From NCBI GenBank assembly GCA_019058275.1, contig JAHLVW010000089.1:1-64000 (forward strand): a stretch of DNA of 64,000 bases, written 5' to 3'. The stretch is from Candidatus Heimdallarchaeota archaeon (GTDB lineage Archaea > Asgardarchaeota > Heimdallarchaeia > JABLTI01). Of the stretch, positions 1-27,705 are shown piece by piece. Each line of letters begins with the position of its first letter. Within the stretch, counting starts at the first letter, position 1. Both the position numbers and the translations under genes were made by a program. Below the pieces are notes generated by a model. That model was not told the origin of the DNA and ran no database searches. It saw only the letters and a list, made by a program, of their open reading frames with translations.

Positions 1-91
1 AGAGAAGATTTAAAAAACAAAAGGAATAGCAAAAAACACCAAATATAAAAACGGGCGCATGGCTCAGTTAGGTAGAGCGGGAGACTCTTAA
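1..91 (+). repeat. Left arm of inverted repeat (TATA-containing promoter + tRNA-Lys 5' half)
   Basis: 1-36 matches revcomp(14190-14225) at 33/36 nt; 53-91 matches revcomp(14134-14172) at 33/39 nt. Confidence 0.9.
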
Positions 92-160
92 TCTATCGGT
101 CGGGGGTTCAAGCGTCTCAAATTTCGATTTGTTTCGGAATACATCCCACAGCGCCTACCA
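53..160 (+). tRNA. tRNA-Lys(CTT)-like gene with a 31-nt non-canonical intron at 58/59 (112-142); three stem mismatches, possibly non-functional
   Basis: GGGCGCA acceptor; D-arm GCTC/GAGC; anticodon loop CTCTTAA; GGGGGTTCAA^ATCCC T-arm; encoded CCA. The intron forms a BHB (GTTC/GAAT helix, AAG and ACA bulges, CAAAT-TTCG-ATTTG hairpin). Mismatches A7-A66, G28-A42, G50-A64. Confidence 0.8.
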
Positions 161-809
161 TTTCCTTTTTTTCTTTTATCCATCTTCTCATTTTTATTGG
201 ATCATTTCTCTCTGCATCGTGTGTGATTATGAACACTCCCACATTTCTTTTTATGTACTCTTTCTCTTCTTTTCTTTCCGCTTTCACTTTCCATGTTCCT
301 GTTGCGAACACTCCGTTCTCCATATCGTAAAATGGTGCGTGTGTATGACTAATTATTAGTTTATCTGCTTTCTCTATTTTTGGCAAATTCCAGTTTCTCT
401 CTCTCACTAGTTTTTCTTTCAGTCTTCCTGTTGCTACTCGCCACGTTTCTTCTTTCTTTTTCACTAGTCCTATGTTGTGTCCGTGGCAGATTATTATTCT
501 TCCCTCTTCTGACACTAATTTTACATATGGAAGAACTACAATATCCGGTCTATCGAACAACAGATTTCCTTCATGCCCCATTCCCCCTGTAATGAATACT
601 ATTCTTTCTTTCCAACCTTTTTCATCAACCCATTTAAGGAATTCTTCTAGTGCCTTTGCACCTTTTTCTTCGTATGAATCTAGAAAATCTCCATTAAAAA
701 TCATTAAATCCATATCTTCCTCAATACTTTCCACTGCTTTATAAAATTCTTTTTTTAAGCATTCTTCTGCGTCTAGGTGTACATCTCCAAATATTGCTGT
801 TTTCGTCAT
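117..809 (-). CDS. Calcineurin-like metallophosphoesterase
   Basis: Motifs GDVH, GDFLD, GGMGHE (variant of GNHE), CHGH, SHTH. Confidence 0.85.
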   Translation of the reverse strand: MTKTAIFGDVHLDAEECLKKEFYKAVESIEEDMDLMIFNGDFLDSYEEKGAKALEEFLKWVDEKGWKERIVFITGGMGHEGNLLFDRPDIVVLPYVKLVSEEGRIIICHGHNIGLVKKKEETWRVATGRLKEKLVRERNWNLPKIEKADKLIISHTHAPFYDMENGVFATGTWKVKAERKEEKEYIKRNVGVFIITHDAERNDPIKMRRWIKEKKEMVGAVGCIPKQIEI

Positions 810-810
810 T

Positions 811-3156
811 TTATTTTTCCTCAGCTATTATTTCCATAATTTCTTCTCTTATTTTCTCTGTTATTCCTTCTATTACTTGCTCTGTCCATCTTTTTTCTTC
901 CTTCTCTTCTCTTGCAATCAATTCCCTCATACCACCTAGCACTTTGTCAAATTTTCTGAAAATCTGTTCTATATTCCCCATTTCCCCTCCTTTTTCGTAT
1001 ATCACTATTTTTCTTTCCTGATAATTCGTGTATGTTCTAAGTGATGTTTCTGAGATATGCAGTTTTATTTCAATTGCTTTCTTCATGATTTCCCCTAATA
1101 GCTTCATCCTTTGTTTTTCTTGTTCCTTTGTTGTTTTTCTTTCCACTGGCTGTATTTCTATTATTAGTCCCTTTGTTTTCTTATCCCAATGGTAATTTTC
1201 CTTCCATTCCTTTTCTTCTTGATTCTTCTCTCCTAATCTCTCTCCTTCTTTCTTTATACTCCTCCCTTTTTTCCATCCTGTTATTAGCTTCCCATCTCTC
1301 GAGTATCTCATTATCTCATTTGTTTCTTTCCGAATAATCATCCTCCCGTATCTTATTGTTAATTTCCTAAACTGCTGTACTCTTGCTTGTCCTTCTATAA
1401 TAAACAGTGGTTGTTTTAACGTGTTTCTCTTTATATTCGTTTGATAGCAATTCAATTGTTCAACAATTACTTTTTCTTCTCCCAGTTCTAGTACTCTGTA
1501 TATTTCCCCTTTGCTTCCATGTAGTAATAGATTTCCCGGTAAAGCATTCCTAATTATCCGTCCCTCTTCGATTGTTCCAATTATTCTTTCTCTTTCCCCT
1601 TCAGTTACTACAATATTCCATTGTCGTTCTATTGCTCTTATTTGGTGTTTTCTGATGAACGCTTGTACTTCTTTTCTATCGGCTATGTTTACTGTTCTCT
1701 CTAGATATGGTTTTTTTTGTTCCTTTGTTTGCAGCATTCCTTGTGCATGTAGGATTGCTATTGCTTCCTCTATTACTTTCCTTGTTTCTTCGTTTTTATT
1801 TAATTCAATTATCTCTTTTCTTGTTGTGATTCCCAGCATTACTCTTAACAGCACAAATGCCTTTGCTCTTTGTAATGCTTTTGAATCGAACAGTATCCTT
1901 TCTGCTTTGTTTTCTAGTAGTATTTCCTCGAGTTTCTTTGTATTCTTGAGGTAGTATCTATCAATTGTGTTTTCCGGATCCAAAAAGATTGTAAAATTTT
2001 TTTTCTTTTCTATCTCGGGAAATCTTAATCTTCCCATTCTTTGTAATAAACCATTCACACCGGTTATCGGCCAACCAATATTGATTATATGCTGAATATT
2101 TGGAATATCCATTCCTAATTCCATCAATGAAGTTGTAAATACAAATCTTGCTTGCCCTCTATGTGTTCTCTCTACTACTGTTGACTTTTCTTTCCTTGTT
2201 AATTGACTGTTCATACAGACAAATGGTGAGTGTGCTAACACTAACTCTTTCGCTAAACCAGTTTTTTTCATTAAGTGCTTATTGCATTTTGCTACCATCT
2301 CTGACACTTTCTGAATATTATCCACAAACACAATTGCTACTCTACCTATTTTCTGTAGGTGAGGATCTAGTTTCTCAAGCAAAAAAGATTCTAATTTTTC
2401 AGGATCTAACAACATAACTGTAACTGTTCCTCTCCTTGTTTTTCCCTGGAAAACCTCTGCTGTTGGTAAGAATTTGTCTCTTAGTTTTTCTACATCCCTC
2501 ACTGTTGCAGAAGCTAGAACCACACTCATTTTTGGGTTCATTTTCTTTAACACCATAACCATTTCTCTAACATGTGCTAAATAGCTCCCAGAACCTGCGT
2601 GAACTTCATCAACTACTAACATTCCAGCATTCAATATCCAATCTATAAAATTCTCATTTCCTTCTTTAAAACATCTATGGAATAATTTGTCTATAGTAGC
2701 TAGTATGATGTTTGGTGTTATCTTTTCAACATGATCAATTTCTTTCTGTGTTAGATCACCATTATATCGACTATATGTTATCTTCCTACCAGTTCCTTCT
2801 AGTATTTTGTTACAGTACTTTGCTATTCTCTTTTCTTGATCTTCTGCTAACTGCTTTGTTGGATAGATTATGATGGCATTTTCTATCTCACCATTCAATA
2901 ATCTCTCAAAAATCGGAAAGAGGAATGTTTCAGACTTTCCAGAATCAGTTCCTACAGCAATAAAACTATCTTTCCCATCTAGAAGTGCTTGTATTGCTTT
3001 AATTTGGTAGGTATACATTTTATGAGGAAATATTTCTCGCAAACATTTGCCTGTAATCAAAAATCCTACATTTATATCATCTATAAAATAATCTGAGATC
3101 TCGCATAAAGATGAGGGTAATTTAAAAACCGATGTTACACCAATGTTTGAAGTCAC
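811..3156 (-). CDS. YprA/Hrq1(SftH)-like SF2 DEAH helicase with degenerate C-terminal DUF1998-like region
   Basis: Q motif YTYQ; I GTDSGKS; Ia YPTKQLAEDQ; YNGD; II DEVH; III SAT; V TSLMELGMDI; VI QRMGR; C-terminal IVIYEKGGEMG without the Cys cluster. Confidence 0.85.
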   Translation of the reverse strand: MTSNIGVTSVFKLPSSLCEISDYFIDDINVGFLITGKCLREIFPHKMYTYQIKAIQALLDGKDSFIAVGTDSGKSETFLFPIFERLLNGEIENAIIIYPTKQLAEDQEKRIAKYCNKILEGTGRKITYSRYNGDLTQKEIDHVEKITPNIILATIDKLFHRCFKEGNENFIDWILNAGMLVVDEVHAGSGSYLAHVREMVMVLKKMNPKMSVVLASATVRDVEKLRDKFLPTAEVFQGKTRRGTVTVMLLDPEKLESFLLEKLDPHLQKIGRVAIVFVDNIQKVSEMVAKCNKHLMKKTGLAKELVLAHSPFVCMNSQLTRKEKSTVVERTHRGQARFVFTTSLMELGMDIPNIQHIINIGWPITGVNGLLQRMGRLRFPEIEKKKNFTIFLDPENTIDRYYLKNTKKLEEILLENKAERILFDSKALQRAKAFVLLRVMLGITTRKEIIELNKNEETRKVIEEAIAILHAQGMLQTKEQKKPYLERTVNIADRKEVQAFIRKHQIRAIERQWNIVVTEGERERIIGTIEEGRIIRNALPGNLLLHGSKGEIYRVLELGEEKVIVEQLNCYQTNIKRNTLKQPLFIIEGQARVQQFRKLTIRYGRMIIRKETNEIMRYSRDGKLITGWKKGRSIKKEGERLGEKNQEEKEWKENYHWDKKTKGLIIEIQPVERKTTKEQEKQRMKLLGEIMKKAIEIKLHISETSLRTYTNYQERKIVIYEKGGEMGNIEQIFRKFDKVLGGMRELIAREEKEEKRWTEQVIEGITEKIREEIMEIIAEEK

Positions 3157-3158
3157 TT

Positions 3159-3716
3159 TTATCCCTCCTCTTTTAATCTCGCACCAAAAATGTAATCCAT
3201 GATCTCCTCTAATTCCTCTTGAATATACTCTCTTTTTTCTTCAGTCGAATCATTTTGGAGATCAATATTCTCAGTAATTTTTTCAACTGTTTCTTTTATT
3301 TTATCAATACAGATTTCCTCTGGTATTATCTCTATTTTATTCAGAAGAAGCTTTATCTCATCAATTACTTCTTTCTCTTTTTCCTCATTCTCTAATTGAA
3401 AATGTTTTTTTTGTGCTAATTTTTCTAAATCCTCAAGATTAATCGTTAATTCAGCAGGTAATGGTTTGTTTTTTATGATACACTTGTACAATTTATCCAG
3501 CAATGGCATTGTTTTTTCTTTTAATCCAAATCGGTATAGATTTTTTCTGCCCACCCGCCAGATTAATCCATCTTCTTTCAAGACTTGCAGTGTTCGGTAT
3601 GTTTCTGTTAATGATATCTTCGTTGCTTCAGTAATCTCTTTAGCACTTTTAGGATATACTACACCATCCACATTATACTCTTCTAAAAGATGCCATATCA
3701 CTCTAAATTTATCCAT
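3159..3716 (-). CDS. Winged-HTH DNA-binding protein with acidic coiled tail
   Basis: SAKEITEATKISLTETYRTLQVLKEDGLIWR wHTH pattern; overlaps the upstream gene. Confidence 0.7.
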   Translation of the reverse strand: MDKFRVIWHLLEEYNVDGVVYPKSAKEITEATKISLTETYRTLQVLKEDGLIWRVGRKNLYRFGLKEKTMPLLDKLYKCIIKNKPLPAELTINLEDLEKLAQKKHFQLENEEKEKEVIDEIKLLLNKIEIIPEEICIDKIKETVEKITENIDLQNDSTEEKREYIQEELEEIMDYIFGARLKEEG

Positions 3717-5194
3717 TCTATTGGTAACTCCTTCAAGTCATAACTATACTCTTTTACCCTTGGTGACAACTGACCTACTTTGTATCCATGTTTGATTATG
3801 TAATCCTTTTCTCTCCCTTTATGCAAGTATGATAATTTTTCAAATTCAGCTATATCTTTCTCAATTTGTTGCTCAATAAACTTAGACTTCATCCAAACTA
3901 TTGGTTGGAAACCACATCTCTTTATTTCCTCTTGACAGATTCTAAATACCTTATTTCGCAAGAGGTTTTTTTGACTAATAGGAAGATACTCCCATTCAAG
4001 AACTAATCGCCAGAGTTTAACACCGATTGAATTAATCATCTCTCTGTCATTGATAAAGAGTTGTTCATCATGTAATCTCTCACAAATATTTTCCAAAAGA
4101 TTATCAAATTCCAAAACATTCTTTGTTAGAGCTTCTTTATATGAATTATAGGTTTGACCATTAAACACACAGGGATTACTTAAAACATCCTCTTTGGTTT
4201 CAAATAGAATCTTTTGACCAACAGGAGAAACATAATACAATCTTTCACCTTTGAATCCAGAAATTTTCTTGATATGTTTTTTAGTAATTTTTTTATCTAA
4301 AATTGCCTTCAAAGATTGAATATGTCCTGTTTTCTTTAATGAATTACATAAATCTAATGGTAATCCCATCCAAGTAAGGTTAGAATTAATACTAAAATGA
4401 GTGAAACCACCAACTCCCAAGTAATTCAATCCTAACTCTTCTAATACTGACCACATTTCTTCCTCATAGATTAGAAAAGCAGTGTTGAACAAAGCATCTG
4501 CTTTTGTTCGAGCTATTGTCTTATAATTCCCAATCATTTGTTTCTTATTATGTAACCTATCAGAAATTCTGTGTCTAATCCGAAATCCATAAGGCTCAAT
4601 TAGGTTGTTTGTAAAATCCCATACTGTTTTAGCTGATAACCCCTCTGTAACATTACAGAGTGTTCCTTCATGATAGTGATAACCAAGAATATAGGTATCT
4701 CCTAGTTTATCAATAAGGGGTTGGAAAGTATTCCTATTAGATGCCATCCCTTGTAAAGCATATACTAGACTCAGATCACTTTTAATAGTTGATTTCAAGA
4801 AATGATTGTTAAAACCATTACTCAGTCTAATAGCATCTACACAAGTTGCTTTTTTTACAGAAATTCGATTAAGATTAAACCAACCTTTGAAAGAATCAAT
4901 TCGTTTATAATAACAACCATTCTCAATTAATACTTGTTTAATCTCAAGTGGCAATCCAATATGATCATAAACGAATTTAAGATCACTTATCTTTAGCATT
5001 AGTTGTCCTACAAACAGAAATTCACCTGCGATTTTAACCTCATATCCAGGTAGAATCGGAACTCCTAAACTACTCTTTGGTTGTTGGTAATCTTGTGCAG
5101 TTAATCCTGTTAGTTGGTAAATTTTATCTTTAAAGAGGTGCCCGGAATCTTTCACACACTTGATATAATGTGTCATTGACTCTCTAGTATTCAT
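3698..5194 (-). CDS. Highly divergent solo Cas1/casposase homolog, catalytic residues apparently substituted (Q/H/N)
   Basis: Ordered Cas1-like blocks: LQGMAS (IEGxAA), YGFRIR, ADALFNTAF (NAxLNYGY), GLNYLGVGGFTH (GLDPYxGFLH), LPLDLCNSLK (LxxDLMExFR), YYVSPVGQKILF...FNGQTY. N-terminal beta-domain-like KISDLKFV...VLIENGCYYKRID. GAGGAG RBS before ATG 5194. Confidence 0.7.
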   Translation of the reverse strand: MNTRESMTHYIKCVKDSGHLFKDKIYQLTGLTAQDYQQPKSSLGVPILPGYEVKIAGEFLFVGQLMLKISDLKFVYDHIGLPLEIKQVLIENGCYYKRIDSFKGWFNLNRISVKKATCVDAIRLSNGFNNHFLKSTIKSDLSLVYALQGMASNRNTFQPLIDKLGDTYILGYHYHEGTLCNVTEGLSAKTVWDFTNNLIEPYGFRIRHRISDRLHNKKQMIGNYKTIARTKADALFNTAFLIYEEEMWSVLEELGLNYLGVGGFTHFSINSNLTWMGLPLDLCNSLKKTGHIQSLKAILDKKITKKHIKKISGFKGERLYYVSPVGQKILFETKEDVLSNPCVFNGQTYNSYKEALTKNVLEFDNLLENICERLHDEQLFINDREMINSIGVKLWRLVLEWEYLPISQKNLLRNKVFRICQEEIKRCGFQPIVWMKSKFIEQQIEKDIAEFEKLSYLHKGREKDYIIKHGYKVGQLSPRVKEYSYDLKELPIEWINLE

Positions 5195-7265
5195 CAGGAC
5201 TCTCCTCATAATTTATTTCTATTTTTTCTTGAATTAATTTGAAAGACGATCCACATCTCGAACATTTGTTTACCATTGCACCTTGTTGAGGAAAAGCTCT
5301 AGAACCAAAACCTTCTATGTAAACTTTTTTACCTTCTTTCAAGCAATTTGGGCAATGATGAGCAAATTCCTCTCCATCTTCTCCACCAAAACTAACGAAT
5401 TCTGTTTGTGTACTTTGATAAAACTCTGGTATTGATATGTTAAATTCCATTGTATCTGCTTCTTGATAAAATTCGCATGCAACAGTTTTTCTTCGCAGTT
5501 TATTAGTAAGCAAATATAGTAGATATTTTTCTGGAATTTTCCGTTCAGCAATCTCTTCCGCTTCTACCCAAAAATTACATCGAACGTTTTCATAGTAGTA
5601 ACATCCACCACATTCTTTGAAATAATAAAATGGTATTTCACTCAAAGAATAATATTTTACGCTTCTACCTTTTGGTGGTTTTACTACCACGGTTTGAAGT
5701 GAATCAGATTGTAATTCAATTTTTGAAAGAGCATCTGTTACTTCTTTTTTTTGTAATGATAAGTTGAGCATTATCTGAGCTGCAGTTATTGGTTCACATG
5801 CAAGTGTTAATTCTTCATTTATTGCTTGAAGAATAGCCTCTTTATCTTTTTTTCCTGATTCATCATCAACATAATCGAAATTCGAAGAAATCAGACTTTC
5901 AATTAACGAAAAACGTTTCTTGGCTTTTTCTGACATGATTTCTTGATAACAAGATAATAATTTTTGTATTTTAAAGAAAGAGTAACTAGTTTTTCCTGAA
6001 AAAATTGACTTAAAAATCGCATCATCTTCATTTAATTCCCTTGTTTCCAACTTTTCGATTAATACTTGAAGATCATCATATGCAATTCGACCTATTGTGA
6101 ATGTATGAAAAATTCTAGCAATCCCATCCCAATCAAGAACATTGTTCGAAATCTTCTCCTGAATCAAAGTAATAATAGCTAATGGATCTTTTTTTATTTC
6201 CTCAAAATAAGTGGATGCTACTAGAAACCTTTTACCAAAAGGTGTTAGATTATATCTACCAGTATAATTCTCACCATGAGAAATTAATGCAAATGTTTCT
6301 TTTTCAGAATGTAAAGTCTTATTTGATTTATTTAGTAATTTAAATATAGCATAAAATTCCTCTTCGATAATTTTATCAAGTTCTTCATTCTTTCCTGTAA
6401 GTGTAGTTTCGTTAATTTGGAGCCTATAGTTTATGCTATCCTTTAGTTTTAGTAATAATTGTTTTTTCGTTGGGTGTCCTGAAAAGGATCTCAATAATAT
6501 TTGAAATGGTAAAATACTTCTGAGAAGATCTCTAGTATCTATCACCTCTGTTATTTCCACATTTTCTTGATTGGATTCAGTAACATCGATAATTGACTTA
6601 GTTTGGAATGACTTTAGTAGCTGACTTTTGGTTAGAATTCCAGGTGATATGAAATGAACTCTTTTATTTGACTTTGCAGTTTTTCTTTTTAAGAACAATA
6701 TACTATCAAGATCTATCAAATCAAAATTTCCCTTTTCATTTAGCGGATCAACAAAAATATATGCATTAACTAAAGGCAATGATACTTTTCTTTTTAAATC
6801 AGAAAAATTACTGCGCCTATATAACAAATTTCGAAGTAGTTGATTGTAGCTTGTGATAATTATGCAATTAGTACTGGATGGATAACAATTTCCTTTAAAT
6901 TTTTTAAAAGTAGATGCAACTCGAATTGTTGAGTTCGTTAATCGATGTGAAAAGTCATATTCATGCTCATATTGTTCTAATTGGTTTATCTCTGAAGGAT
7001 TGAGAAAATTGTGGATTTGTTTAGCTTCTTTGGTAGTTCTTACTACAATCATTGCGGATGTGTTTGCTAATCGGGAATTAAGTAATGCTAATGTTGCAGC
7101 AATTTGTAGTTGTTCAGATGTTTTAGGTGTATTGATGGTTAAATCTTCTTGACATTGAACGGCTTTTCGGATTCCCTCTTGGCTAAAACCAGTTGGGAAA
7201 GCATAGTCTCTAAGGATAGTTACAAAGGATCTCAGAAGACAACCTAAATGAGCCATATCAGTCAT
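5184..7265 (-). CDS. Inactivated Hel308/Ski2-like helicase derivative with wHTH domains and two C-terminal Cys clusters
   Basis: Degenerate motifs TPKTSEQ (I), VVRTTKEA (Ia), IIITSYNQL (Ib), FVDPL (II); YNLTPFGKR winged-helix signature; CGGC..C..C and CPNC..CSRC. Confidence 0.55.
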   Translation of the reverse strand: MTDMAHLGCLLRSFVTILRDYAFPTGFSQEGIRKAVQCQEDLTINTPKTSEQLQIAATLALLNSRLANTSAMIVVRTTKEAKQIHNFLNPSEINQLEQYEHEYDFSHRLTNSTIRVASTFKKFKGNCYPSSTNCIIITSYNQLLRNLLYRRSNFSDLKRKVSLPLVNAYIFVDPLNEKGNFDLIDLDSILFLKRKTAKSNKRVHFISPGILTKSQLLKSFQTKSIIDVTESNQENVEITEVIDTRDLLRSILPFQILLRSFSGHPTKKQLLLKLKDSINYRLQINETTLTGKNEELDKIIEEEFYAIFKLLNKSNKTLHSEKETFALISHGENYTGRYNLTPFGKRFLVASTYFEEIKKDPLAIITLIQEKISNNVLDWDGIARIFHTFTIGRIAYDDLQVLIEKLETRELNEDDAIFKSIFSGKTSYSFFKIQKLLSCYQEIMSEKAKKRFSLIESLISSNFDYVDDESGKKDKEAILQAINEELTLACEPITAAQIMLNLSLQKKEVTDALSKIELQSDSLQTVVVKPPKGRSVKYYSLSEIPFYYFKECGGCYYYENVRCNFWVEAEEIAERKIPEKYLLYLLTNKLRRKTVACEFYQEADTMEFNISIPEFYQSTQTEFVSFGGEDGEEFAHHCPNCLKEGKKVYIEGFGSRAFPQQGAMVNKCSRCGSSFKLIQEKIEINYEESPDEY

Positions 7266-8031
7266 CCTCCAATCCTGTGTGATTGAATTCTGTTATAATT
7301 TTCATCAATTTGTCACTGGAATTTGAACCCATTATTGACCAAAATAATTGGCTTTCTAATTCTTTAGTAAATTCATCAACAGAATCAATGATATCAAAAA
7401 ATTCGTCTGAAATAGATAGCAAATGAGATTCACAGTCTAATAAAAAAGAAAATATGGTATCTAGTTGTTTTTTATATATCTGTAACATTGATAAATTTGA
7501 GATTTGAGGTTTAGGTTTGTTAATCTCGAAAACACCTTCTGGATAATAAATCATAAGAATAAATCTTAGTAAAGGATGATTTAGTTGTAATCGGTAAGAT
7601 TGTTGTTTCTTACGTGGTAATTTCTGTAAAACTCCTAATCGAACTAAATTTTTAACAAAAGAATCAACTGATCTTTTGGAAAATTGGTTAGCAGCTTTCA
7701 TCTTCAGATATTTTAAAGATTGATACTCTAAATTGCATGTTTGCAAACAATAATTTGCTAGCAAGTAGCACATGGAAACTATAGACTTTTTGTTTAAATA
7801 ATCATCACCAAATGTTTGGATGACATTACGGTTTTCAACAGGCAACTGTATCATAAACTCGTCTTCACCAAGTATTTCTCTAGAATTTTCTTTAAATAGA
7901 GCTAATCTCGCAAAAAAACGAAAAGGAGATTGTGATTTACAATTAACAATTGCAAAAAAATGGAAAGGGTCAAATTTCACTATCGAAAACACGCTTTCTC
8001 CTGCCTTCTTTTGACGAGAAGAAAGTTTCAC
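7258..8031 (-). CDS. wHTH-containing protein, first gene of the Cas1-like operon
   Basis: FSKRSVDSFVKNLVRLGVLQK...YRLQLNHP wHTH pattern; 8-bp overlap with the next gene. Confidence 0.55.
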   Translation of the reverse strand: MKLSSRQKKAGESVFSIVKFDPFHFFAIVNCKSQSPFRFFARLALFKENSREILGEDEFMIQLPVENRNVIQTFGDDYLNKKSIVSMCYLLANYCLQTCNLEYQSLKYLKMKAANQFSKRSVDSFVKNLVRLGVLQKLPRKKQQSYRLQLNHPLLRFILMIYYPEGVFEINKPKPQISNLSMLQIYKKQLDTIFSFLLDCESHLLSISDEFFDIIDSVDEFTKELESQLFWSIMGSNSSDKLMKIITEFNHTGLEDD

Positions 8032-8161
8032 AATGTCCCTTTTCTATTTCAATAAATCCTATTTTCTTACTTCTTTCTTCTTTAATAATCTCCTTTCTAC
8101 CATTTATTGAAAATCAGAACATAAAAAGAAATGATTTTTTATCACTCATCTGTTTCACTTT

Positions 8162-17465: not shown

Positions 17466-17697
17466 TTTAAATCAACCTAGTAATTATCAAACGCATCTGG
17501 ATTATAAATTAATCTCATGATTTTAGATTATGATTCAATTAGTTTGTGAAAAAGCAAAAGTTAATACTTTCAGTTATCTCCAATAGATGTTTGTTCTCTT
17601 AAGAGGATGTTTGAAGAGGAGATTGCTAATACTTTCACCAATCAGTCTCAACTTTTTATATAACCTATTGAATAATAATAAACTAGGAGCGCAGAAA

Positions 17698-17988
17698 ATG
17701 CATACAAAGAAGAAAATCATCCAAAAGGTCAAAATTGAAACTGTTCAAGCTAAAATTCTGTTGGATTTGGTACCTTGTCCTGATTGTACAAGTTCTCTCA
17801 ACTTCTATCTTGATTGTCCTTTTGGTGAAGGTAACATAGTGAACCCAGAAATCTGTGCTGAACAATGCAATGTTCAATGTGAAGCACTAATCTATTGTGA
17901 ACAATGTGACTACGAGGAGTTTATTGAATTATTCCCAAGAACAGGTTTACCTTTGAAGAAAGGTTTGGAAGAACGTGATGCAGTATAA
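17698..17988 (+). CDS. Small Cys-rich zinc-binding protein
   Basis: CPDC, CAEQC, CEQC; AGGAG RBS before ATG 17698. Confidence 0.55.
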   Translation: MHTKKKIIQKVKIETVQAKILLDLVPCPDCTSSLNFYLDCPFGEGNIVNPEICAEQCNVQCEALIYCEQCDYEEFIELFPRTGLPLKKGLEERDAV

Positions 17989-18040
17989 AGAATCATTTAC
18001 AATAAATATGAATGAAAAATATAGGCTAATATGAAATGCT

Positions 18041-22797: not shown

Positions 22798-25700
22798 TTA
22801 ACCAAAGAACTCAGTTAAGCTTCTTTGATTATTTTCTTCTTTAATAAAGAACTCATCAATGGATTCATTGAATAACTTAAGTCTTTGTTTGAGGTAAAGA
22901 GAAAGATCATAAGTGTTGATGAGGTTTTTCGCTGTATCAAAATATTTTGTAACAGTTTTCTTATAAACTGTTAAAAGCAATTTTCCACCATCTTCACATG
23001 TTGTGCATTTTCCAGATAGAGGTATTCTTCTGTACTTAGTATTGCATTTTACGCATCTAAAAGTTTGAGAGCCAAATGCTCGTAAACAACCAATCATATC
23101 GGGGAAGAAATGTTTATTGATTACACGTTCAGCAACATCCTCTAGTTTTACTGCACGAATTAATTTAGCAACAGCTAATTGTGCTTCCAATTTATCGATC
23201 ATTTTACCTAATCGAGAATAAGCTGTTGATACAGGACCAATACCTATGTCAGATGTTTCATGAGTATAATAGAAATTTTCGAATTGTCCTGGTGTTTCCA
23301 ATCGATTTGCTATTAAATCAATGATTTGAGCAATCTTCTTTGACTCTATGAATTTAAATGATTGTTCATAAAACTCCAAAGGATATCTTTTTGTGCAATC
23401 TACAGCATGTGATTCATCGTCAACTTCTAATGGATTCAAAATAAGTCCTAGAGTTAGTGGTGCATCCATAGATCCACCTCGAGTAATTGGTAGAAATTGC
23501 TTGGAAAAGTCCAAAAATCCTTCCAGCATTAAAATAACAGCATCTTCATCACCATCACATTGATGAGTTAAAATATATTCATTTACCAGTACATTGTGAT
23601 GCTTTTCTGCGTTCAATGAATAGACAAACTCAGCACTTGATTTAATCATCTCCTTCTTCTTAACTTTGAGTAATCTGTTGTTCTTGAATTTCATTTGTGG
23701 TTTTGTTTTCTTGGTTTTGATTATAGCATCCAAAAGCTGTTGTTTTCTAATAGATGTAAAGCCTATTTGATTCCTATAATTTAGAATATTTTCCCCTCTT
23801 ATAGTCAATTTGTATTCTGTTTTTGAATCGCTAGAATAACTTGAGTAACTTGAATAGATTCCATATCGTAACAGCAGTAAATCAAAATCCTTCAGCAACC
23901 CTTTGCTAAAAGAAGAACATACAACAGTGCCATTTTTTCGATCGAGTCCACCATCACCACTAAAATAGGTGCTAATTAAATGCTTTATTTTACTCTTTGG
24001 TAATTTTAAGAGAAAGGAGGGAATTTTCTTCTTATGGGAGCTTGTCTGTAATTGTAAAATAACTTTGAAAAATTGATAAATGATTCTACTGGAAATGGTA
24101 ATCCTATTTGAATCTACATAAGGTTTGAATCCCTTTCCAAAAACCTCTGTTATTGAGGAAAGCATATCCTCTCGTAAATCAGATTCAGATACAGCTAAAT
24201 CAACTTGATAGGTCAATTTGTCAACTTTGCGATGAAATCCTTCAGCAAGATAATAGCCAATTAGCTTCATCAAACTTTCATTGAAGGGGATAACTCGCTT
24301 TATGAAAGTGTGATCTCTTTTAAACCCTAGAGTGCATGGAGGAATATCCATTATTGTTTGTTCATTTATTTCTAGCAATTTTTCTAAAATACTCAAAGGT
24401 ATGGAATCTCTTTCTCGATAGTAATTATTCAGAGTTTTCTTGTTTATGGCTATTTTTTCAGAAAGCTCTTGTAGTCCATGTTTATCAATAATGGTTTGTA
24501 CAAAGGAGCTAATACCCCTAACCATTAGGTCATCCTTAATATCAATAAATTTACTTTTGGTAAATTCTTGAAGTAAATCTATTTCTTGGATATCCTCTTC
24601 AACAAGATTTAGATTTGGAAGTACAAATGTATCACCCTTATTAACTTCTGAGGCTCTTTTTTCTACTAATTTTCCTGCTTTATGAACAATTACTGGATGA
24701 CTTGCGGTGGTAACGTAGGATCTTTTTCCGACTAAATGAAATTTTACTAAATGTTCTGGTGCTGGTATCTTAATTACATCAAGAATATTTGATAGTGTCA
24801 GTTCTCCTATTGAGTGATCAAATGAATAGACTTTAATTTCTCTATTTGGTTGTTTTTTGATCAAAACCATCTTTTCTTCTGTTTCGTTAGTAAATTCATT
24901 CTCATATAGATCTTTGATTTTTACTTGAGTAATTTTCCCTTCGATGTCTAATAAGATTTCAGTATCTCCAGGAAAGCAATTTCGTCTTTTTGCTGCGTGC
25001 CAGTAAGGATGTGCAAGATTGCCTTTAACACTAGAGAAACCAATAATCCTTCCTGTGATTCCAGATGATGTATGGGGAGCAAGACCAATAATAAAATGAC
25101 CAATTAAATCAGTAATTCGATTTATGTTATAAAATCTTGGCAAACCATAAACGGATTCCAAAAGATCATCAACATACTTTGAAACACGAACTAAGAAATC
25201 ACCATTATCAATATTCAATACTACATCTTGTATTTTTAATTCTATGATTTGATCATCTTCAGATAAGGGTTCACCATGAATATCCTTAGTATATCCCAAT
25301 CGTGTTAATTGTTCTATATTAGCATTCACTTCTTTTGGTTTGAAATGCATTAGTGGAATATCTGTAGAATCAAAACGAATTGTCCCATCTTTATAAACAT
25401 TCAAACTGTGTCTAGCTCTTAGGAAACCCTTTTCCAGTATTTCTGGGATTCTATTCTTATTCATTAATTTCTTTACACCTTTTGTTTTTGAAGGTATAGA
25501 ACCACCAAGAGCTTTTTTGACTCGAGTAATTTCAGAATCGATGTTTATTAGTCTCGTGGTAAAGCTTACAGATGATCTTCTACATTCATCACAGAAATTC
25601 TCAGAAAGCTCTTTACCACATCTTGGGCAGCTTTTTACAATAGCAGTTCTTTGATTACATATAGGACAATTAGAAAGGTGTGTGATGGTATTACATGTTG

Positions 25701-27705
25701 AGCACTCTCGCTGAACCACAGTTATCTCAATATCCTTTTTCTTACCGGCTTCAATTAGAAGTCTACTGTTTCCTCCTCCTTCCATTTCTATTGGGTAGAG
25801 AGAATGAATTGGAGGATTCATTTTACGCTCTTTTGCTTTTTCAGGACGTCCCATTCTTGCTCCAGAATATATTGGAGTTTTTAATTTAATCTCAAAAGGA
25901 ACGATGTGTTCGAATGGTGGTCCACCTGTTCTTTGTACTTCATTTGGATCAATTGACTCATTATTAAGTTGCATACATTGTTCAATGATTAAATTACTTT
26001 CATCTATTACAATGTAGTTCTTTTTCACTTTGTGAGGTAGACCTATGACCTCTAAAAATCGTTTTGCTCCGAAATTTTTTTTCAGAATAATTGCGTTGGG
26101 ATTTTCTGTTAATTCTGAAATTAATTTTTTATCTTTTACTCTTTGTTCAATAATCTTACTCCGTAGATCAAAGAATTCATCAAATGATATATCATGCCAA
26201 GCATAATTATATTGAGGATGTAAAGGTAGGAGCAGCTCATAGCAAAAAGCCAAAGTTTCTTCTTGTGTTGGTTTTGTTCCAATTGGGTTGTTTAGAAATT
26301 CTCGCAAGCGATCCTGTTTCATACCTAATTTCTTTGATGCAACTCCTAAATCATTATTACATCTAGATTTTATACGGGATTCTAGATATAATACCCACCA
26401 TTCTTCAACAAAACCAGAAGGAATTAGTGGATGATTATTTTCTAAGAACTCACCAAAACCAACTAACAAATCACCTAGGAATAAAATCTCTATGATTTTC
26501 TTATGGTATTTTATTGCATCTTCATAAGTATTGAGTTGCACTACAGATCCATCTTTCAAGAGAACAATTGGTCCCTCAATTGAATCTACTGGCATTACAA
26601 TGCTTCCTTTTCCAGGTCTTTCTGTTCTAATGTGTGTTCCAGGAGCTAAGAATTCCATAACAACCTTCATTGTAGCTGGATGAATACCAATTCCCGCCAG
26701 GCCAGTATTTCGAGAATGGCCATATCTAATTCGAAAACCACCACGATGAGAGGGATGAGAAAATATTGGCCTCCCAGCTATTACATCTTTAATATAGCCA
26801 TCAGAAGGCTGCGTTTTTGCTTTCATTTCTTCTTTTTCTTGTTCATCTTGAGCTTTAGCAACAGATGCTTTTAGATCTTTTAACCAATCCCAATCAGAAA
26901 GACCAACAGCATTTACTGTTTTTAAAATCTTCATTGCTCGACCTACAATTCCATCATTTAGAACTAAGCATGCTCCACCTCGCAAACAATTTGTTTCTAT
27001 TCGAGGTAAATCCCTAAATGCTGAAACTTCATCAGGATTTGTGCTTTCCCCTGTTACTTCCACAGGTAAATTCTCAACAGCAGTTTCAATTTGATCTGCA
27101 GTAGTAGGACTTTGCAAATGCATGACTCTATTGTATAAATCGACTTCTTCTACAAATCGCTTCATTTCTTGCCTTGTTGCTTTGTATTTAGACAAGTTAA
27201 GCGCTTTTCTAACATGATCAGAGATAAGGACTGTTAGAGCTGCCTCAGTTCCCCCTGCCGATCTAATAGGTCCGGCAAAATAAATGGCTAAATATCTAGA
27301 ATTATCTTCATTACGTTTTATTTTGACTTTAGCAATTCCTTCTAGTGGAGCTGCAGTTACACCTTCGGTTAATATTGCTAAAGCAGTTCGAATAGCCATA
27401 TCTGCTTTTTGCTCTTCTGAGACATCTCCAACATATTTACCTGTAGCAATTTCATGAGCAATCTTAAAAGCTACATTTTCTCGATCCATCTGTAAATTAA
27501 GGTTTCGAATTCTTTCTGCAATACCGGCAAGGCCAATTAAACCTTCCACTTTCCCAGCTACATCTTTTGCTAGATGAATCTCTGGTACAGTTTCAGGATC
27601 TAAGCCTTTCTTTCGTGCATTTTGTGCAACTTCGTAAAGCTTATTGACTTCCTCTTCTAGCATCTGGAAGTATTCTTTTATTTCTTCTGATGCAGCTAGC
27701 TCCAA
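22798..27705 (-). CDS. polC: DNA polymerase D large subunit (DP2) with intein
   Basis: YFAGPIRSAGGT, GARMGRPEK, HAAKRRN^CDGDED, C-terminal CxxC..CxxC and PIP-like QRSLTEFF. Confidence 0.97.
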   Translation of the reverse strand: MELAASEEIKEYFQMLEEEVNKLYEVAQNARKKGLDPETVPEIHLAKDVAGKVEGLIGLAGIAERIRNLNLQMDRENVAFKIAHEIATGKYVGDVSEEQKADMAIRTALAILTEGVTAAPLEGIAKVKIKRNEDNSRYLAIYFAGPIRSAGGTEAALTVLISDHVRKALNLSKYKATRQEMKRFVEEVDLYNRVMHLQSPTTADQIETAVENLPVEVTGESTNPDEVSAFRDLPRIETNCLRGGACLVLNDGIVGRAMKILKTVNAVGLSDWDWLKDLKASVAKAQDEQEKEEMKAKTQPSDGYIKDVIAGRPIFSHPSHRGGFRIRYGHSRNTGLAGIGIHPATMKVVMEFLAPGTHIRTERPGKGSIVMPVDSIEGPIVLLKDGSVVQLNTYEDAIKYHKKIIEILFLGDLLVGFGEFLENNHPLIPSGFVEEWWVLYLESRIKSRCNNDLGVASKKLGMKQDRLREFLNNPIGTKPTQEETLAFCYELLLPLHPQYNYAWHDISFDEFFDLRSKIIEQRVKDKKLISELTENPNAIILKKNFGAKRFLEVIGLPHKVKKNYIVIDESNLIIEQCMQLNNESIDPNEVQRTGGPPFEHIVPFEIKLKTPIYSGARMGRPEKAKERKMNPPIHSLYPIEMEGGGNSRLLIEAGKKKDIEITVVQRECSTCNTITHLSNCPICNQRTAIVKSCPRCGKELSENFCDECRRSSVSFTTRLINIDSEITRVKKALGGSIPSKTKGVKKLMNKNRIPEILEKGFLRARHSLNVYKDGTIRFDSTDIPLMHFKPKEVNANIEQLTRLGYTKDIHGEPLSEDDQIIELKIQDVVLNIDNGDFLVRVSKYVDDLLESVYGLPRFYNINRITDLIGHFIIGLAPHTSSGITGRIIGFSSVKGNLAHPYWHAAKRRNCFPGDTEILLDIEGKITQVKIKDLYENEFTNETEEKMVLIKKQPNREIKVYSFDHSIGELTLSNILDVIKIPAPEHLVKFHLVGKRSYVTTASHPVIVHKAGKLVEKRASEVNKGDTFVLPNLNLVEEDIQEIDLLQEFTKSKFIDIKDDLMVRGISSFVQTIIDKHGLQELSEKIAINKKTLNNYYRERDSIPLSILEKLLEINEQTIMDIPPCTLGFKRDHTFIKRVIPFNESLMKLIGYYLAEGFHRKVDKLTYQVDLAVSESDLREDMLSSITEVFGKGFKPYVDSNRITISSRIIYQFFKVILQLQTSSHKKKIPSFLLKLPKSKIKHLISTYFSGDGGLDRKNGTVVCSSFSKGLLKDFDLLLLRYGIYSSYSSYSSDSKTEYKLTIRGENILNYRNQIGFTSIRKQQLLDAIIKTKKTKPQMKFKNNRLLKVKKKEMIKSSAEFVYSLNAEKHHNVLVNEYILTHQCDGDEDAVILMLEGFLDFSKQFLPITRGGSMDAPLTLGLILNPLEVDDESHAVDCTKRYPLEFYEQSFKFIESKKIAQIIDLIANRLETPGQFENFYYTHETSDIGIGPVSTAYSRLGKMIDKLEAQLAVAKLIRAVKLEDVAERVINKHFFPDMIGCLRAFGSQTFRCVKCNTKYRRIPLSGKCTTCEDGGKLLLTVYKKTVTKYFDTAKNLINTYDLSLYLKQRLKLFNESIDEFFIKEENNQRSLTEFFG
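23560..24978 (-). mobile_element. 473-aa intein with LAGLIDADG endonuclease, ending His-Gln
   Basis: Starts CFPGDT; block B TASHPV; GYYLAEG and YFSGDG; ends THQ/C. Confidence 0.93.

Follow-up and report, generated by a model that had tools for sequence, protein, structure and literature searches.

What does a Cas1-like protein do on a contig that carries neither Cas2 nor a CRISPR-like array? We addressed this question for one open reading frame (ORF) in a window of 64,000 nucleotides (positions 1 to 64,000 of contig JAHLVW010000089.1, Candidatus Heimdallarchaeota archaeon, assembly GCA_019058275.1; G+C content, ~32%). The ORF occupies 3698-5209 on the minus strand and encodes 503 amino acids (aa) when read from base 5209. 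An earlier note, made from the letters of the window, had delimited it as 3698-5194 and interpreted it as a solo, highly divergent Cas1 with acid-to-amide substitutions at two catalytic residues. The delimitation was correct: M6 (base 5194) is the start in all 14 close homologues (48-89% identity), two of which carry the label Candidatus Heimdallarchaeota, and it gives a protein of 498 aa. This protein is a real, extremely diverged member of the Cas1 superfamily, and the six-gene operon that encodes it forms the conserved core of a set of ~14-kb islands, which in a single Heimdallarchaeial genus sit in tRNA genes. The protein is probably a casposase-like integrase of a polymerase-less island that integrates at tRNA.

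Sequence and fold of the Cas1-like protein

Used as a single sequence, the target protein found no match in Pfam, PADLOC, NCBIfam, or the PDB (phmmer). A profile of 15 close homologues gave only noise against the PDB, and AlphaFold (AF2) run on a shallow alignment of close homologues reached a predicted local distance difference test (pLDDT) score of 39.7. An exhaustive HMMER search led to more distant relatives, among them proteins of 998 aa and 1215 aa, and a word-indexed profile search added no others. One distant relative (P0026) grazed the Pfam Cas_Cas1 model (E 0.066), and a paralogue from the same genome (C48) passed the Pfam Cas1 cut-off. A family alignment of 48 sequences (A3) was assembled from public homologues, own-genome paralogues, and congeneric genomes. 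As a profile against the PDB, A3 had a sole match, the Methanosarcina mazei casposase 6OPM (E 9.3e-6). When A3 was compared with 33 canonical Asgard Cas1 sequences by hhalign, the two aligned with 97.0% probability (E 1.2e-10) over 292 columns spanning both Cas1 domains; with own-genome paralogues only, the probability was 94.6%. Iterated hidden Markov model (HMM) searches within the genome never recruited its two canonical Cas1 genes; the link to Cas1 needed hhalign and the PDB profile. At the sequence level, it is the family profile (through 6OPM and hhalign), and not the single protein in Pfam, that reaches Cas1.

The AF2 model of the target had a pLDDT of 79.5 and a predicted template modelling score (pTM) of 0.73. 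The earlier note had proposed a structure search as a check on the assignment; in Foldseek, the top 50 matches of the model were all Cas1 or casposase (E ~1e-7). VIA gave a Z of 20.1 to Archaeoglobus fulgidus Cas1 (4n06_A; root-mean-square deviation [rmsd], 4.0 Å over 266 residues) and a Z of 19.7 to the casposase 6opm_C, in both cases for model residues 42-442. The model has the two-domain architecture of Cas1, an N-terminal beta-strand domain and an alpha-helical catalytic domain, which together cover approximately residues 42-442 of the 498-aa model and are followed by a C-terminal helical tail of ~55 aa. The motifs LQGMAS, YGFRIR, ADALFNTAF, GLNYLGVGGFTH, and LDLCN occur in the target translation in the order that had been reported, and the reading frame is intact and full length relative to the 14 homologues. 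The Cas1 assignment is therefore sound, resting on the match of A3 to 6OPM, the hhalign result, the AF2 model, Foldseek, and VIA, and the description of the protein as a solo, highly divergent Cas1 was right.

Cas2, a CRISPR-like array, and a family-B polymerase were all absent from the 66-kb contig, as had been noted for the neighbourhood of the gene, and no tandem array was found in the window. Genome-wide searches placed them on other contigs: Cas2 on C26 and C76 only, array-like repeats on C4, C26, C68, and C99 only, and PF00136 (family-B polymerase) on C11, C41, and C94 only. The two canonical Cas1-Cas2 loci of the genome also sit on other contigs. The target is not part of a CRISPR system.

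Active site and selection

Residue patterns were taken from an hmmalign table of 30 sequences and from the 48 rows of A3. The HMMER and hhalign alignments concurred on the positions of the Cas1 motifs in the target, which are given here with the gene itself.

3698..5194, minus strand: Cas1-like protein of 498 aa, Asgard "aCas1" type (profile, hhalign, and model)
4643..4645, minus strand: E189 (codon GAG) in the "EG" motif ("TEG"), aligned with the catalytic Glu of Cas1 and casposases (profile alignments)
4397..4399, minus strand: H271 (codon CAT), aligned with the catalytic His of "GfLH" (invariant in 48 sequences)
4343..4354, minus strand: D286-L-C-N289 (GAT..AAT), counterpart of Cas1 "D-l-x-E/D" (alignments)
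4751..4753, minus strand: codon of Q153, a variable position (Q/H/N/Y and others), not catalytic (alignments)

The metal-binding set of Cas1 is E141/H208/D221 in Escherichia coli numbering. Three of the four conserved active-site residues are kept in the target: E189, H271, and the auxiliary D286. At the fourth, where Cas1 has its last acidic metal ligand, the target has N289, so that the complete set of Glu, His, and final Asp or Glu is not present. Position 189 was E in the aligned relatives, with D in two distant paralogues as the exception, and D286 was invariant across the family alignment. Position 289 was D or E in every aligned relative apart from the target and the two orthologues nearest to it (89% and 84% identity), in which a single G-to-A change, common to all three, replaces GAT with AAT.

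These results revise the earlier reading of the active site. The codons it quoted were exact (Q153, 4751-4753, CAA; H271, 4397-4399, CAT; N289, 4343-4345, AAT), and of its two amide substitutions, the Asn at the last metal-ligand position is real, but the proposed Glu-to-Gln change at Q153 is a misalignment: that site is Q, H, N, or Y among close homologues, and the profile alignments put the catalytic Glu at E189, where it is intact. The alignment that was to tell whether the Q/H/N combination is conserved gave a variable Q153, an invariant H271, and N289 in three orthologues only. The idea of a repurposed DNA-end sensor or scaffold fails as a property of the family, since all other members aligned at position 289 have D or E and the E-H-D core is essentially universal among the 48 sequences. 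Homologues with an intact triad had been expected to mark lineage-specific decay. The homologues do keep E-H-D/E and the Asn is lineage specific, but decay is contradicted by the ratio of nonsynonymous to synonymous substitution rates (dN/dS), which is 0.13-0.17 for the target in pairwise comparisons within the Asn clade (synonymous divergence [dS], 0.41-0.61). Between two Asp-bearing orthologues the dN/dS of the same gene was 0.157, and four neighbouring genes gave similar values. By this comparison of the Asn clade with the Asp pair, the Asn clade remains under purifying selection, and N289 is no sign of decay.

Two alternatives bear on this substitution. That the target is a functionless, decaying remnant of Cas1 might be argued from the loss of one catalytic acid and from the lack of any single-sequence database match, but the frame is intact and full length against 14 homologues, dN/dS is low (0.13-0.17), and the operon and its translational coupling are conserved. 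The selection analysis excludes such a remnant, which we regard as very improbable. The other confines the idea of the earlier note to this clade: the target and its two closest orthologues would have lost catalysis through the Asp-to-Asn change and would persist in a domesticated island as a subunit that binds DNA or serves as a scaffold. N289 is exclusive to the three orthologues, arose by a single G-to-A change, and has been kept over a dS of 0.4-0.6 at a dN/dS of 0.13-0.17, and the tRNA-like gene at the operon tail (see below) is degenerate in this copy. However, E189, H271, and D286 are strictly kept in these three proteins, contrary to what dispensable catalysis would lead one to expect; Asn remains able to ligate a divalent metal; the operon is intact throughout; and the contexts of the operon tail differ between the Asn-clade loci L044 and L045, hinting at continued rearrangement. 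We consider this loss of catalysis distinctly unlikely.

The operon and the island at tRNA-Lys

In six public loci, the same six genes follow one another: a ~200-aa protein, a ~700-aa protein, the Cas1-like protein, a ~185-aa winged helix-turn-helix (wHTH) protein, a ~780-aa DEXH helicase, and a ~215-aa metallophosphoesterase. The genes upstream of this core vary. Its other members in the window, and the remaining parts of the island, are the following.

53..160, plus strand: tRNA-Lys(CUU)-like gene, convergent with the operon tail, with one T-loop intron and three stem mismatches (manual reading)
117..809, minus strand: calcineurin-like metallophosphoesterase, last gene of the operon (domain search)
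811..3156, minus strand: DEXH helicase, 781 aa; closest solved relative YprA/MrfA (6znp); weak C-terminal match to MZB (Zn-binding)
3159..3716, minus strand: winged-helix protein, 185 aa, with TrmB/Csa3-like HTH (domain search)
5184..7265, minus strand: 693-aa partner with a degenerate N-terminal part like superfamily 2 (SF2) helicases, a wHTH-like region, and C-terminal Cys clusters
7258..7854, minus strand: small protein of ~198 aa, first gene of the conserved core, no known family (locus comparison)
8162-8857, minus strand: HEAT-repeat protein, accessory, upstream of the operon and in the same direction
8884-11082, minus strand: 729-aa protein with a C-terminal NERD/PD-(D/E)xK-like nuclease domain, accessory
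11395..13074, plus strand: LAGLIDADG-like and HTH_3 protein, 559 aa, divergent from the operon
13071..14048, minus strand: tetratricopeptide (TPR)-repeat protein, 325 aa, within the segment bounded by tRNA pieces
14100..14225, minus strand: partial tRNA-Lys copy comprising the promoter region, 5' exon, and intron 1, then truncated; inverted relative to 53-160
14304..14333, plus strand: tRNA-Lys 3' fragment of 30 nt (T arm, acceptor, and CCA), right boundary of the island

The partner gene overlaps the start of the target by 11 nt, and the wHTH gene overlaps its 3' end by 19 nt. Read from the GTG at 8031, the small-protein ORF is longer than its orthologues. In paralogues of 1000-1376 aa, the partner region is fused to the Cas1-like domain. 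Residues 94-719 of P0027 (1215 aa) align with the 693-aa partner (E 2e-27) and residues 726-1184 with the target, and the 998-aa relative shows the same two alignments, more weakly. The partner and the target thus belong to a single unit. Genes for the NERD nuclease and the HEAT protein were present in the nearest orthologous loci and not in the paralogous loci L002 and L003. A LAGLIDADG-like gene and TnpB adjoin other paralogues, TnpB lying beside L002 and L003. Among the island genes tested, neither a tyrosine-recombinase, serine-recombinase, or other integrase-type domain nor an OrfB_IS605/TnpB domain was detected.

The Cas1-like family is multicopy, with ~16-18 paralogues per genome. In the genome of the window, six-frame searching gave 13 matches, an HMM search of ORFs gave 15, and iteration raised the number to 18; three are stand-alone genes (~500 aa), and the others are fusions of 1000-1376 aa, genes of ~620-720 aa, and fragments. 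Giant ORFs of 1000-1376 aa, with a 500-700-aa N-terminal region fused to the Cas1-like domain, were located on C17, C27, C50, C93, and C106, and in two other Asgard genomes (G041 and G058) the Pfam Cas1 cut-off is reached directly by ORFs of ~1325-1367 aa. With a threshold of E <= 1e-5, the family was detected in eight of the 10 other genomes of the genus, with at most 12 matches per genome in that survey, and in none of the 72 other genomes of the class that were searched.

The boundaries of the island were examined at the tRNA-like pieces. None of these was called by ARAGORN (with and without introns) or Rfam, and they were identified manually by comparison with an intact tRNA of a congener. 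At the position that matches the gene at 53-160, orthologous loci carry a clean tRNA-Lys with two introns, and bases 1-91 match 14225-14134 at 79.6%. In a congener whose flank is 95% identical (G200), similarity to the window begins at 14316, inside the 3' fragment. In a second congener (G199), the island is absent and this flank adjoins an intact tRNA-Lys that follows tRNA-Gly. The empty site in G199, the junction in G200, and the 3' fragment indicate that the ~14.2 kb from 160 to 14333 was inserted at the tRNA-Lys locus, where it is present in one lineage and absent from another. A paralogous copy of the operon in the same genome abuts tRNA-Pro.

Further comparisons concern the interior and the ends of this insertion. 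In a close strain (L001), the sequence corresponding to the window right of 12829, a breakpoint inside the LAGLIDADG gene, is 97.5% identical, and to the left lie an operon of 75% identity in the opposite orientation and an extra gene of 427 aa. Metagenome run X5 covers the flank from 12829 on and hardly any of the operon, and one of its contigs ends at 12829. On contig C2 of the same genome (76832-76965), 16 nt separate tRNA-Gly(GCC), the same tRNA-Gly that precedes the intact tRNA-Lys in G199, from a truncated 5' part of tRNA-Lys-like sequence, beyond which unrelated DNA extends to the contig end. This may be the left junction of one or more insertions at the tRNA-Lys locus, and with its tRNA-Gly and truncated 5' part it implies that two or more insertions may be present there. 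A displaced 3' end that would fit the acceptor of the tail tRNA was searched for and not found. Terminal inverted repeats of ~200 bp ending in TAACAATTAG were considered and dropped: the L046 copy lacks them, and there conservation does not extend beyond the tRNA and its promoter.

Other observations were made in and around the island. The phosphoesterase ORF is ~15 codons longer than its orthologues and runs antisense through the 3' part of the tRNA-like gene (117-165); either a shifted stop or degeneracy of this tRNA copy would account for the difference. Two-intron tRNA-Lys(CUU) genes, with introns in the anticodon loop and T loop, were found on the minus strands of L001 (15045-15175), L045 (15036-15150), and L046 (15040-15170). 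ARAGORN, its intron option included, misses all three, and tRNA counts for these genomes are probably underestimated. A 64-bp imperfect palindrome (81%) at 11096-11159 separates the divergent NERD-nuclease and LAGLIDADG genes and may serve as an operator or promoter; contigs C105 and C77 contain related sequence. A Translin-family-like protein of 217 aa is encoded in the conserved flank (16812-17465, minus strand), and an ORF of 1635 aa lies at 22798-27705 (minus strand).

In the mechanism that we propose, the Cas1-like protein would act with the 693-aa partner as the island integrase, in the manner of a casposase, and would join the island ends to the tRNA-Lys target. The partner would probably supply recognition of DNA and of the target. 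The place of the casposon polymerase would be taken by the helicase and phosphoesterase, which would process DNA ends or intermediates. A bolder and more tentative proposal, which we hold to be doubtful, is that the six-gene module is a self-contained integration machinery and represents a new polymerase-less class of Cas1-mobilised elements that inserts into tRNA genes in Heimdallarchaeia, carries a replacement tRNA, and in this lineage has Asn as its last ligand under strong purifying selection. If so, either an amide can serve as a ligand in a working Cas1 active site or a non-catalytic role has been selected.

Several points weigh against an integrase. Mutation of the equivalent Asp abolishes activity in the Cas1 proteins of E. 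coli and Pseudomonas aeruginosa, and judged by its residues, the target copy, with Asn as the last metal ligand, may be catalytically incompetent. The start of the contig (base 1) cuts off the left end of the island, so that neither a target-site duplication nor a complete pair of ends can be demonstrated. The inverted partial tRNA copy at 14100-14225 is not explained by simple integration at a 3' end. Contigs of four metagenome runs, compared with positions 1-18000, yielded no joint that skips the island and no transposition or excision product, contigs being a weak test of either. The copies within the genome are only ~65% identical at the DNA level and are thus old paralogues, not recent jumps. 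The LAGLIDADG endonuclease gene in the island offers an alternative route for spread, and the helicase, the nucleases, and the NERD and HEAT genes fit a defence module.

This last point leads to another explanation, in which the operon serves in defence or DNA repair as a module that is not programmable, the Cas1-like protein is its nuclease or DNA-end binder, and the module is cargo of an island moved by other means. YprA-like helicases and nucleases are typical of defence systems, the helicase matches the BrxH, Cas3, DruE, and Dpd models generically, and NERD-nuclease and HEAT genes adjoin the operon, whose copies are old paralogues and not fresh transposition products. Reviews citing Makarova et al. 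2020 describe a distinct Cas1 in most of the defence-like ARAMP systems of Asgard archaea. However, no system-specific PADLOC model matches any non-helicase gene, the operon is the conserved core while its neighbours differ between paralogous islands, it adjoins tRNA genes at the island edge, and the island genes tested yielded no other integrase-type domain. We consider a defence or repair module unlikely and retain the casposase-like integrase as the probable role.

Comparison with known systems

Cas1 connects transposons (casposons) with the origin of CRISPR adaptation. A Cas1 relative that moves 14-kb islands without a polymerase would, if real, widen the known range of Cas1 enzymes. Its associates here are a dead helicase, adjacent or fused, together with a YprA-type helicase and a phosphoesterase, and its hosts belong to the closest archaeal group to eukaryotes. 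Such a protein would also provide a new scaffold for site-specific integrases, and the natural Asp-to-Asn variant under selection is a ready test of how strict the Cas1 metal site is.

Compared with CRISPR Cas1 (PF01867; A. fulgidus 4N06 and E. coli Cas1), the target shares the two-domain fold, as quantified above for 4N06, and the motif order of EG, N-containing helix, G-x-H, and D-x-x-D/E. It differs in its low identity (11-14%), the absence of a Pfam match, the lack of Cas2 or an array nearby, and Asn as the last acidic ligand.

Casposons target the 3' ends of tRNA genes. The family-2 casposases (M. mazei 6OPM; Aciduliprofundum boonei) have the same fold as the target (Z 19.7), and 6OPM is the only solved protein reached by the family profile. 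Like the target, casposases are Cas1 proteins independent of CRISPR, without Cas2 and associated with the 3' end of a tRNA gene. Unlike casposons, the island has no family-B polymerase and carries a helicase and a phosphoesterase in its place, and unlike casposases, the 498-aa target has a separate or fused partner of ~700 aa.

A further comparison is with the Asgard aCas1 proteins. Makarova et al. 2020, as cited in PMC8730458, described Asgard Cas1 homologues of "unprecedented diversity," some of them predicted to reside in new mobile elements, and PMC8730458 and PMC10691335 give the prediction that aCas1 proteins serve unknown mobile elements as transposases or integrases. The aCas1-TnpB loci Cas1H-Asgard-1 and -2, which are flanked by repeats, come from Altae-Tran et al. 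2023 (PMC10691335). The examined literature on Asgard mobile elements did not mention Cas1. The kind of protein is therefore already published, and no description of its gene context and insertion site was found in the accessible literature. Like the aCas1 proteins, the target is an extremely diverged Cas1 in a Heimdall-group genome, without an array or Cas2; unlike them, it lies in an island at tRNA-Lys, its operon of six genes also encodes a phosphoesterase, a YprA-like helicase, and a dead-helicase partner, and its last ligand is Asn. The aCas1-TnpB loci resemble the present one in that TnpB adjoins paralogous copies of the operon, and they differ in that the copy in the window is without TnpB among the island genes tested. 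What the window chiefly adds to this published kind is a tRNA-Lys-associated copy and an active-site variant with one genuine substitution, not two.

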